A DNA stretch of 64,000 nucleotides, from NCBI RefSeq assembly GCF_003334315.1, contig NZ_QOWR01000013.1; one strand, 5' to 3'. Each line of letters opens with the position of its first letter. The first letter of the stretch is position 1. Source of the DNA: Escherichia coli (GTDB lineage: Bacteria; Pseudomonadota; Gammaproteobacteria; Enterobacterales; Enterobacteriaceae). Below are positions 33,973 through 42,222 of the stretch, piece after piece. The notes under the pieces are model-generated. The model was not told where the DNA came from. It was given only the letters and a program-made list of their open reading frames with translations, and ran no database searches. Position numbers and translations under genes: made by a program.

Positions 33973-35799
33973 TTATTCCCGCGAACTAAACAACGCCGCC
34001 AGACCACTGCGCCGCTCAGTACGAGTGGCGATTGCCGCACTTAATATACGCTCATCGGCATACAGCGACAGACGGCGACGCGCGCGGGTCACCGCGGTGT
34101 ATACCAGCTCTCGCGTTACTACCGGCGTGCGTTGGCTCGGTAAAATCAACGCCGCATGGTCGAACTCCGATCCCTGCGATTTATGTACCGTCATCGCCCA
34201 CGTAGTTTCGTGCTCTGGCAAGCGACTCGGTTGCACAGACTTAATATTGCCGTCCGGCATCGCAAACCAGACGCGCGTCCCCTGCCCGCGATCCAGCGCA
34301 ATACCGATATCGCCATTAAACAACCCAAGCGCGCTGTCATTACGGGCAATCATCACCGGTCGGCCTTCGTACCAACGAGAGTGCGGATGACGATGAATTT
34401 TGCGCTTCTGTTGCATAAACTGCTCAATTCGCTCATTCAGTCCAGCCACGCCAAACGGCCCTTCCCGCAGGGCGCACAAAAGCTGGTACTCATTGAACGC
34501 CTGAATGATTAAATCCGGCTCGGCACGCGCTTGCAGCAGATCCAGATAACGTCCGTAACCCGCAAGAGCTTCCTCAAGCATCGCAATATAATCTTCGCCG
34601 CTCTGTAAAAGTCGTTTTTCGATATCAGTAAAATCCTGCTGAAAAACGGTTTTCACTGACGTTTTATCACCACGATTGATCGCCGCAGCTAACTGACCAA
34701 TGCCAGAATCGCTGCCGAAACGATAGCTTTTTTGCAGCAGGCAGAGACTGTCGCGCAAAGATGCCGCTTCTGTGCCGGTTCCTGCCGGAACGTGAGTCCC
34801 CGTCAGGCGGCTTAGCTGCCTGGCACGCTCGGCGGTAAAGCCCGCGTTGGCATAAGCGCAGATATCGCCCAGCACAGCCCCAGCCTCAACCGAGGCCAGT
34901 TGATCACGATCGCCGAGAAAGATCACTCGCGCATGATCTGGCAAGGCGTCGATCAGTCTCGACATCATAGGCAGATCGATCATTGACGCTTCATCTACCA
35001 CCAGCACATCAAGATGCAGCGGGTTACCGGCATGATGACGTAAACGCTGGCTACCCGGCTGCGCACCCAGCAATCGGTGCAAAGTGCTGGCATCTTCCGG
35101 AATGCGTTTCTTTTGTTCATCGCTCAGCGGTAACTGTCGCAAAGCCTTGCCGAGAGATTCGGTTAAGCGCGCGGCAGCTTTACCCGTTGGTGCAGCCAGA
35201 CGGATACGGCAGCGTTCGCCGTCGGCCATTTGAATTAACGCTGCCAGCAACTTCGCCACGGTGGTCGTTTTACCGGTGCCTGGGCCGCCGGAAATCACCG
35301 AGATCCGCCGCGTCAGCGCCACTGCCGCCGCAACTTTTTGCCAGTTAATTTCATCGCTTACTGGAAAAAGTTTGTCCAGGGTTTGCGCCAGTAGAGCTTC
35401 ATCAACCTCAATGGCATGATTCACCTCATTGAAGAAGCGCGCTACCGTCCGCTCGTTACACCACATGCGATTCAAATAAAGACGATCGCCACAGAGGATC
35501 ATCGGCGTGGGTTCATCTCCCCGGCTGACCGCTTGTGAAGCCAGCAAGCATTCTTCCCAATTTTGTAGCTCACCGATTTCACTGACACAGGTCGCCAACA
35601 GCGGATGCGACGCCTCGTTATTTTCCAGTCGTGAAAGCGGTAAACAGACATGCCCTTCCCCGGCGTCGTGGCTTAACAGGGCTGCCGCGAGGGTGACGGC
35701 AGGATGTTCATCTCCCGCCACGGTCAGGGCAAATTGCACATCCAGCGGGCGTAGCTGTTTGTGCTCCACAGCTTCCAGTAATTGCTTTTGCAATTTCAT
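33973..35799 (-). CDS. recD: RecBCD exonuclease V alpha subunit RecD (SF1 5'-3' helicase), 608 aa
   Basis: Walker A GPGTGKTT in a 608-aa ORF. Confidence 0.95.
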
Positions 35800-39341: not shown

Positions 39342-42222
39342 TCTTTTCACTCATCAGGGGCATTGTTTGCTGCAACGCGCTGACGTTCTCCCACACTTTC
39401 CAGCCTTCAGGGTGTACATATTCGGCTTTCCCGTTCTGGCTGCCGGAAATCTGCGACAGAATAGCCATGCCTTGCGGCTCGACCACCGCCTGATGGAAGA
39501 AATCAGCAAGTTTTTGCGGCGTCAGCAGTTTTATCTGGGCCACGATTTTATCACGCGAATCGAAGCGCATATTGCCGCGATCGAAATCTTTACTTAACTT
39601 CGATGCTTCTTCGCCGAGCGTTTGCGGTGCCTGCAGCATCTGGGTAATTACCGCCTGCTGGATTTGCGCAAACTCATCTGGCTTCATCGCTCGCAATTTT
39701 GCCTCTGCGGTTGGGAAAAACGCCTTGTAACGCTCCCACAAGAATGAAGGCTGTTTATCATTGCTTTGCAAAAGGAAGCCCATGCCCCACTGACGCCCCA
39801 CGCTCATTGGAAACGCAAACACGGCATAGCCCAATTGTTCTTCGGTACGCAACTGATTGTAGAACCACGGCTGTACGATCTGCCCCAACAGAGAGCTATA
39901 GGCTGAGCTGGTGTATTCATCGTAGCCAGTCGGTACAAATACCGCTGCCAGTGCGGAGTCGGTGCTGTTACCGGCTTTTTCAAAGATGACGGATTGTTTT
40001 TTATCGACCACTACATCTTTGTTTCGACACCACTCTGAACCATCAGCGCCCAACTGTTTTTGCACATCGCGTGCCAGCGTTGTTGCCTGGGCCTCGGTCA
40101 TGTTGCCGATAACCATAAACTCTGGTCGAGCCCCTGATTTTAAGGCGTCGCGATAGGCCAGCACCTCTTTCAACGTAATGGAGGGCAAAATTTTACGCCG
40201 TTCATCTCGCGAGAAGTACGGCACTTGCGAGAGCATCTGCGCGGGCATAATCGCCTGCTCAAACGCTTTACCCTTTTCTGCGGAATCCATCATCTGGTTA
40301 TACCAGGACTTCGCCTGCTCAAGCTGATCTTCCGTGGCGGTATAGCTAAAGTAGCCTTCCAGCAATGCCTGGAACAGCTGCGGCAGACGCTGGGTGTAAC
40401 CATTAGCATTAACCATAAGGCCGTTGTTAGCGTTGGTGGAAAAACTTATGCCACCAACCGACGCCTGGTTGCTTAACTGATCAAGCGCCAGCCCTGCGAG
40501 ATAATCATTGAGCGCAAACATCACCTGATTGCGGGCGCTGTCCATGGCTTTCGGATTACGCAAAATCAGGCTGACATCAGCTTTGGGCTCGCTGGCAAAA
40601 TAACGGCTTGGCGCATACACCACGCGCAGATTCGACTCATCAACAATCAGCTCTGGATGGTCGTATTTCTTCTCTGACTTAATCAGCGAGAAATCATCAG
40701 GAATATAAGGGTTAAGCTCTGGCAAAGAGAGCGCAATGTCGGCGGCTTTTTTCTGCCAGTCGGCGAAAGTTTGTGCGCTGATTTTATCGACCTGATACGG
40801 CGCATCGACAAAGTAAGCCGTTTTGTTGTGCGGCTCTTTCGGGCTGATATACCAGATACGCGCATTCTGCGGCGTCATCATCGCCAGACGTTCCTTTACT
40901 GCTTTAGCATCGTACCGATCGGCAATATTGACTGCATCCAGCGTATGCTCAACAGGAACGCGAATCATGGTATCTGCCAGCCATTCGACGTAATCCATAT
41001 CACGGGTGATCGACGGATAACGGAAGTCGATATCCAGCACATTCGCCAGTTCATCGAAGTATTGTTTATCAATGCCTTTTTCACGTAACAGATTGAGATA
41101 GCTAAAAATTGCCGCCACAACCTGATCGCGATTAGCCAGGCCTTTATCGGTTAAAGACGCAGAGATCGCTAATACGCCGCTGTTGCCGTTGACGATAGGA
41201 TCGGAGTTGGCGCTAATGCCCTCAACTAATCCCTGCTTTTGCAGCCAGTCAGAAAGTGTACCTGGGCTGCGATTGCCAATCAGATAGGTAATCAATTCAT
41301 CGGTTTTACTACGGAACTTCGCTGAGTTGTTATCGATGCGAAACTCAACGCGCAACACTTTACGCGGCAGCGCAGGGACGTAATGAATGATAATGCCCTT
41401 TTGCGCGTCGGTGACTACCGGCACGGTGATTTCCGGTTTTTTGCTCTCTTTGTTCGGCACGCGACCAAAGGTGTCCGCCGCCATTTTTGCCAACTCCGGC
41501 AGCGGTTTATTGCTGTAAATAACCGCCTTCATCAGATTGGCGGAATAGTACTTCTCGTGGAAATCTTTCAGCGCCTGCTGCACCGGATTACCAGGTTTGT
41601 CGCTTAAAGTTTCGAGGTTACCACCAGAAAACTTTGAACCGGGGTGTGCCGGGTTAATGGTTTCTGCGCTGACCTGCGCCATGCGCATCCCGTCACGCGT
41701 ACGCGCCATGGTTAATTCGGCATTCACTGCATTACGTTCACGTTCGGCGTATTTCTTGTCGAGCAAGGGTTCTGCAATAGCGTCCGCCAGGCGGTCTACC
41801 GCACCGGGCAAGGCGTCGTTCTCAACTTCCAGATAGAAAGCCGTGCGATACGGTGCCGTGCTGGCATTGTGACTGCCGCCGTGCATTTTGAGATATTCGG
41901 CCAGACTGTCAGCCTGCGGGTACTTTTTCGACCCCATCAGACTCATATGTTCAAGGTAATGTGCCAGCCCCTGGTACGCCTCGGGATCTTCCAGCGACCC
42001 AACGGGCACCACCAGCGCCGAGAGCGATTTAACCGCCTGCGGATCAGAAACCAGCAAGACCACCATACCGTTATCCAGACGTATAGCCTGATACTGGCGG
42101 TTATCTTTATCACTTTTACGGATGGTTTCCTGAATCGGCTGCCATCCCGTTTCTGCCTGACTTAAGGGTGCCCAAAGGGCAACAAACAACAATAATGCTT
42201 TGAACCAGGTGCTGCGGGGCAT
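39334..42222 (-). CDS. ptrA: Protease III / pitrilysin (M16 zinc metalloprotease, periplasmic), 962 aa
   Basis: Signal peptide and inverted zinc motif HYLEH; overlaps the recB start by 8 nt. Confidence 0.95.
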   Translation of the reverse strand: MPRSTWFKALLLFVALWAPLSQAETGWQPIQETIRKSDKDNRQYQAIRLDNGMVVLLVSDPQAVKSLSALVVPVGSLEDPEAYQGLAHYLEHMSLMGSKKYPQADSLAEYLKMHGGSHNASTAPYRTAFYLEVENDALPGAVDRLADAIAEPLLDKKYAERERNAVNAELTMARTRDGMRMAQVSAETINPAHPGSKFSGGNLETLSDKPGNPVQQALKDFHEKYYSANLMKAVIYSNKPLPELAKMAADTFGRVPNKESKKPEITVPVVTDAQKGIIIHYVPALPRKVLRVEFRIDNNSAKFRSKTDELITYLIGNRSPGTLSDWLQKQGLVEGISANSDPIVNGNSGVLAISASLTDKGLANRDQVVAAIFSYLNLLREKGIDKQYFDELANVLDIDFRYPSITRDMDYVEWLADTMIRVPVEHTLDAVNIADRYDAKAVKERLAMMTPQNARIWYISPKEPHNKTAYFVDAPYQVDKISAQTFADWQKKAADIALSLPELNPYIPDDFSLIKSEKKYDHPELIVDESNLRVVYAPSRYFASEPKADVSLILRNPKAMDSARNQVMFALNDYLAGLALDQLSNQASVGGISFSTNANNGLMVNANGYTQRLPQLFQALLEGYFSYTATEDQLEQAKSWYNQMMDSAEKGKAFEQAIMPAQMLSQVPYFSRDERRKILPSITLKEVLAYRDALKSGARPEFMVIGNMTEAQATTLARDVQKQLGADGSEWCRNKDVVVDKKQSVIFEKAGNSTDSALAAVFVPTGYDEYTSSAYSSLLGQIVQPWFYNQLRTEEQLGYAVFAFPMSVGRQWGMGFLLQSNDKQPSFLWERYKAFFPTAEAKLRAMKPDEFAQIQQAVITQMLQAPQTLGEEASKLSKDFDRGNMRFDSRDKIVAQIKLLTPQKLADFFHQAVVEPQGMAILSQISGSQNGKAEYVHPEGWKVWENVSALQQTMPLMSEKNE

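Follow-up and report, generated by a model that had tools for sequence, protein, structure and literature searches.

This locus raises the question of why the gene for a periplasmic protease stands between the genes for subunits of a cytoplasmic recombination enzyme, and what the tight abutment of these genes means for their translation. The locus lies on the minus strand of a 64,000-nucleotide (nt) stretch of Escherichia coli DNA (assembly GCF_003334315.1, contig NZ_QOWR01000013.1; hereafter the window) and comprises, in the direction of transcription, recC, ptrA, recB and recD. Our preferred reading, to which we give a probability of roughly 85%, is that this is the canonical E. coli locus, made of two units (recC and ptrA-recB-recD), in which stop/start overlaps would aid re-initiation of translation from one gene to the next. 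Finch, Emmerson and colleagues reportedly determined the sequence of the E. coli K-12 locus in the 1980s, and Claverie-Martin et al. are said to have treated its ptr regulatory region in 1987. None of this is new: the locus with its overlaps and operons, and ptrA in its odd place, has been described from the 1980s on, and a 2025 paper restated it, with the RecBCD subunits coming from two operons, recC and a polycistronic ptrA-recB-recD (PMC12342828, eLife 2025).

A sequence-only reading of the window had named the genes recD, recB, ptrA and recC, in that order. Both the names and the order stand: they agree with curated equivalog models, with the junctions as read and with the RefSeq annotation of a 100%-identical E. 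coli genome (L001), whose coordinates, once offset (window position = L001 position + 29899), equal the window coordinates for all four genes. The span first given for the cluster (35799-42222) covers recB and ptrA and leaves recD (33973-35799) and recC (42398-45766) outside. The RecBCD (exodeoxyribonuclease V) gene set is complete, RecB, RecC and RecD each scoring above the curated cutoff. The recC gene (42398..45766) encodes the gamma subunit of 1122 residues and matches NCBIfam equivalog NF008289 at 2125.9 bits (cutoff 1470) as well as TIGR01450. The recB gene (35799..39341) encodes the beta subunit, a 1180-residue SF1A helicase and PD-(D/E)XK nuclease that matches NF008128 at 2337.2 bits (cutoff 1697) and TIGR00609 and aligns over its full length with chain B of PDB 1W36 (1W36_B); an alignment of 16 diverse RecB sequences shows no variation at Walker A residues G26-K29 or at the nuclease residues D1067, D1080 and K1082. 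The recD gene (33973..35799) encodes the alpha subunit, a 608-residue SF1B helicase that matches NF008127 at 1138.9 bits (cutoff 671) and TIGR01447. It follows recB directly as the last gene of the unit, and the next gene, argA, lies on the plus strand and is convergent.

The gene between recC and recB is equally clear. ptrA (39334..42222) encodes pitrilysin, or protease III, an M16 zinc metalloprotease of 962 residues, described as periplasmic, that matches NF011681 over its full length (1855.8 bits, cutoff 765). The protein belongs to peptidase family M16A, with the inverted zinc motif HXXEH present as HYLEH near residue 88; in the PDB it matches 1Q2L_A ('Protease III'), and insulin-degrading enzyme is the next relative. 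The PtrA N-terminus, MPRSTWFKALLLFVALWAPLSQA|ETG, resembles a Sec signal peptide in the form of its n-, h- and c-regions (codons at about 42222..42154). The solved mature chain 1Q2L_A aligns to PtrA from residue 24 on, which fits cleavage of such a signal peptide, and a periplasmic location is stated in the literature (PMC12342828). The description of a periplasmic protease gene embedded between subunit genes of a cytoplasmic enzyme agrees with that location.

The arrangement is that of the species. Several E. coli chromosomes carry the 11.9-kb stretch that holds the locus at 100% identity, and a search of 5,426 complete genomes of the species found it in every one, with identities of 95-100% (coverage at least 80% in 5,423). 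The E. coli K-12 locus has the same genes, order, strand, protein lengths (1122, 962, 1180 and 608 residues) and junctions, and differs only by strain-level polymorphism, such as 3 mismatches in 36 positions of the Hfq-binding stretch described below. One E. coli assembly carries the whole recC-ptrA-recB-recD locus on a record labelled plasmid; the probable cause is a wrong replicon label or a fragment of the chromosome.

Read on the minus strand, recB ends ...GAGGAGGCG TAA (in a longer reading, ...GGAGGAGGCG-TAA-TG...), with an ATG beginning at the last A. At this TAATG (35797..35801) the recB stop (35801..35799) and the recD start (35799..35797) have one nucleotide in common, the A at 35799. 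At the other junction ptrA ends ...AAG AAT GAG TGA, with its stop at 39336..39334 and the recB ATG at 39341..39339, so that the two genes overlap by the 8 nt ATGAGTGA (39334..39341). Direct reading and the RefSeq coordinates agree at both places, and the single shared nucleotide at 35799 and the 8-nt overlap of the sequence-only reading are both as claimed. The list of open reading frames (ORFs) offers an alternative recB start, a GTG at 39350 (1183 residues); RefSeq uses the ATG (1180 residues). Within E. coli both junctions are conserved: a 101-nt stretch spanning ptrA/recB occurs in 5426 of 5426 genomes (4975 at ≥99% identity), and one spanning recB/recD likewise in 5426 of 5426 (5323 at ≥99% identity). 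The sole genome with a partial match at recB/recD is NZ_AP024561.1 (E. coli NIPH17_0036), where the 101-nt query matches over 43% only (~1213014-1213056) and recB alone is annotated, which suggests that recD is disrupted or rearranged in that strain.

Both pairs have the structure of a translationally coupled pair, in that the upstream stop overlaps the downstream start, at TAATG (35801..35797, with GGAGGAGG upstream) and at ATGAGTGA (39341..39334), and the downstream ribosome-binding site (RBS) falls within the upstream gene. The same features, a stop/start overlap of one to a few nt and a downstream RBS in the upstream coding sequence, characterise the coupled pairs trpE-trpD, trpB-trpA and galT-galK (Oppenheim & Yanofsky 1980; Schumperli et al. 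1982, as cited in PMC12342828). Coupling in the trp and gal pairs was tested genetically, whereas at ptrA-recB and recB-recD we infer termination-reinitiation coupling from the sequence. A further difference is that the products of ptrA and recB are not partners, so coupling between these two genes cannot serve stoichiometry. The earlier wording, 'consistent with translational coupling', is a fair inference from the overlaps, and the same suggestion has been made from the location of the recB RBS within ptrA (PMC12342828).

The two junctions differ in the strength of the downstream start. The recD start is preceded, within the last recB codons, by a strong Shine-Dalgarno (SD) sequence, GGAGGAGG (35804..35811), with a predicted anti-SD duplex of -12.1 kcal/mol, the strongest among the four genes (recC -6.6, ptrA -6.3 kcal/mol). 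recB has almost no SD sequence, its best duplex reaching -2.5 kcal/mol. We propose that recC would be expressed as its own unit, that ptrA, recB and recD would share one polycistronic mRNA started from a promoter in the 175-nt recC-ptrA spacer, and that the overlaps would let ribosomes ending one cistron begin the next. A recB AUG with virtually no SD, lying 8 nt inside ptrA, points to dependence on ribosomes terminating on ptrA, and most RecB would then come from their inefficient re-initiation. Such inefficiency would fit the very low copy number of RecB. At the second junction the strong GGAGGAGG inside recB may help terminating or newly recruited ribosomes to start recD at UAAUG, and RecD production would thereby be kept close to RecB production. 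Re-initiation would thus be weak from ptrA to recB (no SD, an 8-nt back-step) and efficient from recB to recD (strong SD, UAAUG).

The division into two units rests on the spacer between recC and ptrA (42223..42397), which forms the 5' region of the ptrA-recB-recD operon. The operon promoter and 5' untranslated region (5'UTR) have been placed here (PMC12342828), and because the 175-nt spacer, with the ptrA promoter region, separates recC from ptrA, the four genes would form two units rather than one. By our reading the spacer holds a candidate sigma-70 promoter (42355..42383), with TTGCGC (42383..42378) and TATGAT (42360..42355) 17 nt apart, which is a plausible promoter of ptrA-recB-recD. The 36-nt Hfq-binding region of the K-12 ptrA 5'UTR (PMC12342828) has a single match in the window, with 3 mismatches and 0 matches expected by chance, at 42237..42272, just upstream of the ptrA SD sequence. 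Transcription started about 7 nt past the candidate promoter (~42348) would begin 76 nt upstream of this homologue, a distance at which the candidate matches the published description (PMC12342828). Within E. coli the spacer is more variable than both gene junctions (1718 genomes at 90-95% identity).

The Hfq site bears on coupling. Hfq binds mainly beside the ptrA RBS, and deletion of the 36-nt site from the K-12 ptrA 5'UTR took the yield of RecB from 7.9 to 16.3 proteins per mRNA and also halved the mRNA level (PMC12342828). The deleted site, at the start of ptrA, lies 2.9 kb upstream of recB; an effect on RecB per mRNA over this distance is expected if ptrA translation feeds recB translation.

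The overlaps could instead be passive genome compaction, with recB and recD each served by de novo ribosome binding at a site of its own. Such overlaps are very common in the neighbourhood: by our count on the RefSeq annotation, 8 of 28 co-directional neighbour pairs in the 50 kb around the locus overlap, namely aas/lplT (8 nt), ppdA/ppdB (10 nt), ppdB/ygdB (4 nt), ygdB/ppdC (16 nt), ptrA/recB (8 nt), recB/recD (1 nt), csdA/csdE (1 nt) and ygdD/rlmM (8 nt). The ptrA/recB and recB/recD overlaps are real and conserved, but ordinary. Compaction would also sit well with the strong SD that recD owns (-12.1 kcal/mol) and with the variation in the exact ptrA/recB overlap among Enterobacterales. It fits recB poorly, where an SD duplex of -2.5 kcal/mol makes efficient de novo initiation unlikely, and it would leave unexplained why manipulation of the ptrA 5'UTR changes RecB translation efficiency (PMC12342828). 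The conservation of overlap across phyla (recB to recD in 62 of 70 loci, recC to recB in 41 of 54, as set out below) also speaks against compaction; by a rough estimate an in-frame ATG would fall exactly at -4 or -1 by chance only a few percent of the time. We regard compaction as the less probable explanation, though one that deserves some weight.

These counts come from a survey of recB loci. A first homologue search with RecB gave 120 top matches that were nearly all from Citrobacter and E. coli, and a 50%-representative search took its place. E. coli RecB was aligned with 15 diverse representatives, and the alignment was used to retrieve 80 recB loci from genomes of different species, with flanks of up to 10 kb, in which the four genes were located by tblastn. 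For each junction the start was taken as the ATG or GTG nearest to the upstream stop whose frame runs open into the homologous region. Under this rule, which somewhat inflates overlap counts, recB overlaps recD in 62 of 70 loci (42 ATGA, 13 one-nt, 3 eight-nt), recC overlaps recB in 41 of the 54 loci without an intervening ptrA (31 ATGA, 7 one-nt), and ptrA overlaps recB in 14 of 16 (8 ATGA; 3 eight-nt, in Escherichia and Citrobacter; 2 one-nt; 1 twenty-nt). Spacings of -20, -8, -4, -1, +5 and +15 are all seen between ptrA and recB among Enterobacterales. With starts taken nearest to the alignment-extrapolated N-terminus, the recB-recD overlap fell to 32 of 70; this first rule was dropped, as it gave wrong recD starts in Pseudomonas and other bacteria with longer N-termini, and many of its recB-recD 'gaps' contained an ATGA after a GGAG-like motif. 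Judged from these sequences, the recB-recD overlap is the ancestral and dominant state under either rule, and the recC-recB overlap of other bacteria is replaced in Enterobacterales by a ptrA-recB overlap whose length drifts. Some loci depart from the usual ATGA: five Vibrio and Aliivibrio loci (L017, L018, L021, L040, L065) have a non-coding-looking recC-recB gap of 273-492 nt, and in Ca. Enterovibrio (L016) the gap is 1073 nt, with no plus-strand ORF of at least 60 residues.

Another possibility is that recB and recD are expressed mainly from promoters of their own inside ptrA and recB, as independent abutting units. A consensus promoter and terminator scan of 33000-47000 found one promoter-like site inside ptrA on the correct strand (41912..41885, 9 of 12 matches), which would suit such units. 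At the two junctions the same scan detected neither kind of signal; promoter-like sites numbered 3 against a shuffle expectation of 10.3 +/- 2.9, and terminator-like sites 13 against 15.3 +/- 3.8. As the scan missed the likely ptrA promoter, whose -35 hexamer has 3 of 6 matches, its outcome carries little weight either way. The coding overlaps themselves leave no intergenic space at ptrA/recB or recB/recD, and hence no room for a terminator between the genes, and the polycistronic ptrA-recB-recD operon under Hfq control from the ptrA 5'UTR (PMC12342828) argues in the same direction. Independent promoters and terminators separating the genes thus found no support in the consensus scans, and we consider separate units improbable. 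RNA folding around the two junctions and the ptrA 5'UTR was no better than for shuffled sequences (z = -0.46, +0.32 and -0.87) and gives no sign of a regulatory RNA structure, and a scan at Rfam gathering scores detected no RNA family within the cluster.

Besides the sensitivity of the overlap counts to the start rule, several points weigh against coupled re-initiation. The cited and present data do not separate coupling from independent initiation, and the strong SD of recD could support de novo initiation without coupling. The crude promoter scan leaves room for weak internal promoters of recB or recD, and older plasmid and cloning work is said to have suggested some independent recB and recD expression, fragments without the ptr promoter reportedly complementing. 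The 5'UTR deletion is not a clean test of coupling, given that it lowered mRNA as well (PMC12342828). We nevertheless favour none of the rival explanations over the re-initiation proposal.

The position of ptrA is a feature of one order. In 16 of the 80 loci the gene immediately before recB is ptrA, and these loci are all from Enterobacterales and spread over five families: Escherichia albertii, Citrobacter (2), Enterobacter (4), Superficieibacter, Pectobacterium, Acerihabitans, Yersinia, Photorhabdus (2), Providencia, Ca. Pantoea persica and one metagenome-assembled genome (MAG); the taxonomy of the lesser-known genera was checked separately. The other common arrangement, recC followed by recB without ptrA, occurs in 54 of 80 loci, including Vibrio, Aliivibrio, Aeromonas, Psychromonas, Pseudomonas, Shewanella, Halomonas, Marinobacter, Alcanivorax, Burkholderiales, Rhodocyclales, Desulfobulbaceae, and Planctomycetes and Verrucomicrobia MAGs. 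The ptrA-recB order holds for 16 of 16 loci of free-living Enterobacterales and for 0 of 54 where recC and recB are contiguous, and ptrA was not found within 10 kb of recB in any non-Enterobacterales locus sampled. In the remaining 10 of 80 loci tblastn found no recC upstream of recB; three Pasteurellaceae loci and an Orbaceae locus have none in the 10 kb upstream, and four others are uninformative on this point, recB lying at most ~700 nt from the end of the stretch in L036, L045 and L078 and L055 being a 4.5-kb contig with ~800 nt upstream. The comparison of gene order that had been proposed with the sequence-only reading thus confines the ptrA-recB order to Enterobacterales among 80 loci.

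Because ptrA lies upstream of recB only in Enterobacterales loci and recC-recB is contiguous elsewhere, the survey favours a scenario in which ptrA was inserted close to or at the root of that order. It has been proposed that ptrA probably broke an ancestral recC-recB-recD order, its placement being attributed to horizontal transfer that interrupted these genes (PMC12342828, citing Cromie 2009). A test for recent transfer by GC content at third codon positions gave no signal (ptrA 0.587, recB 0.587, recC 0.581), and such values are compatible with an old, order-level insertion. A repeat search of 33000-47000 found short two-copy chance matches only, and no insertion scars around ptrA. ptrA, without a role in recombination, would have entered an ancestrally overlapping recC-recB junction and afterwards taken the place of recC as the cistron upstream of recB.

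The contiguous, ancestral operon of other Proteobacteria (Pseudomonas, Vibrio, Aeromonas, Shewanella, Burkholderiales and others) has the same three subunit genes in the same order, with the typical recB-recD overlap (ATGA or one nt). It differs in having no ptrA and in the overlap of recC with recB in 41 of 54 loci, which would allow coupling of the whole set of subunits; the E. coli recC, in a unit apart, has no such connection to recB. Among Enterobacterales recC overlaps ptrA in 1 of 15 loci, and the other gaps measure 15-179 nt, apart from one of 1025 nt. In Photorhabdus, Providencia, Enterobacter sp. BIGb0383 and Superficieibacter, where the gap is 15-19 nt or the genes overlap, the four genes may form one unit. 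At its other end, the E. coli recC has its ATG 12 nt past the stop of ppdC (TAG 45781..45779). ppdA-ppdB-ygdB-ppdC (window 45766-47515) are four small, mutually overlapping prepilin-like genes upstream of recC, and recC, 12 nt behind them, may also be read through from this cluster.

A functional link between protease III and RecBCD, such as co-regulated envelope and DNA-damage responses, might have placed ptrA where it is. The stability of the arrangement, throughout the sampled loci of free-living Enterobacterales (16) and the E. coli genomes (5,426), and the maintenance or re-formation of the ptrA-recB overlap in 14 of 16 loci could be taken that way. Such a link would have to account for the absence of ptrA from the vicinity of recB (10 kb) in every non-Enterobacterales locus sampled, for two symbiont Pantoea genomes that keep recC-recB without ptrA, and for an unrelated opposite-strand block, pncB and others, that interrupts the same junction in Vreelandella; we think it very unlikely. 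The symbiont loci (L025:1-5856 and L057:6573-13429), from reduced genomes of stink-bug 'Pantoea', have recC, then ~100-130 nt, then recB, and neither ptrA nor recD was detected within the flank by tblastn, a sign that ptrA, and perhaps recD, was lost secondarily as these genomes shrank. In Vreelandella aquamarina (L047:5743-10001, NZ_FODB01000034.1) ~4 kb separates recC from recB. On the opposite strand this stretch holds a gene for a 398-residue nicotinate phosphoribosyltransferase (pncB, 487 bits) and a 540-residue ORF with no NCBIfam match, and on the same strand two small ORFs. An unrelated block at the same boundary suggests that the recC-recB site tolerates insertions in more than one lineage.

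A stronger form of the re-initiation proposal would make ptrA the translational gate for RecBCD in Enterobacterales: an SD-less recB would be fed almost only by ribosomes terminating on ptrA, and ptrA translation, hence Hfq at the ptrA RBS, would determine how much RecB and RecD is made, together with a low efficiency of re-initiation. We offer this tentatively, as a possibility that we rate below even odds. If it were true, the insertion of ptrA would have uncoupled RecB and RecD from RecC synthesis and rewired the control of stoichiometry and low copy number. RecBCD is present at fewer than 10 molecules per cell (PMC12342828), and the share of RecB and RecD synthesis that depends on translation of ptrA and recB bears on how so few copies with balanced subunits are made. 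The small addition of the survey is that overlap of recB with its preceding gene, recC in most bacteria and ptrA in Enterobacterales, is strongly maintained while its exact length drifts.

The window contains further features apart from the cluster. A single tRNA-Met (CAT) gene lies at 30945-31021 (ARAGORN, Rfam). The otherwise identical strain RCAD0514 has two tandem tRNA-Met copies annotated, and relative to its record window coordinates are shifted by 110 nt below that point. K-12 has three copies (metZWV). The difference is either copy-number variation or an assembly collapse. Small RNAs unrelated to the cluster score above Rfam gathering thresholds elsewhere in the window: CsrB (7714-8073), GcvB (26254-26459), the OmrA/OmrB pair (59441-59724) and ES036 (29475-29517).

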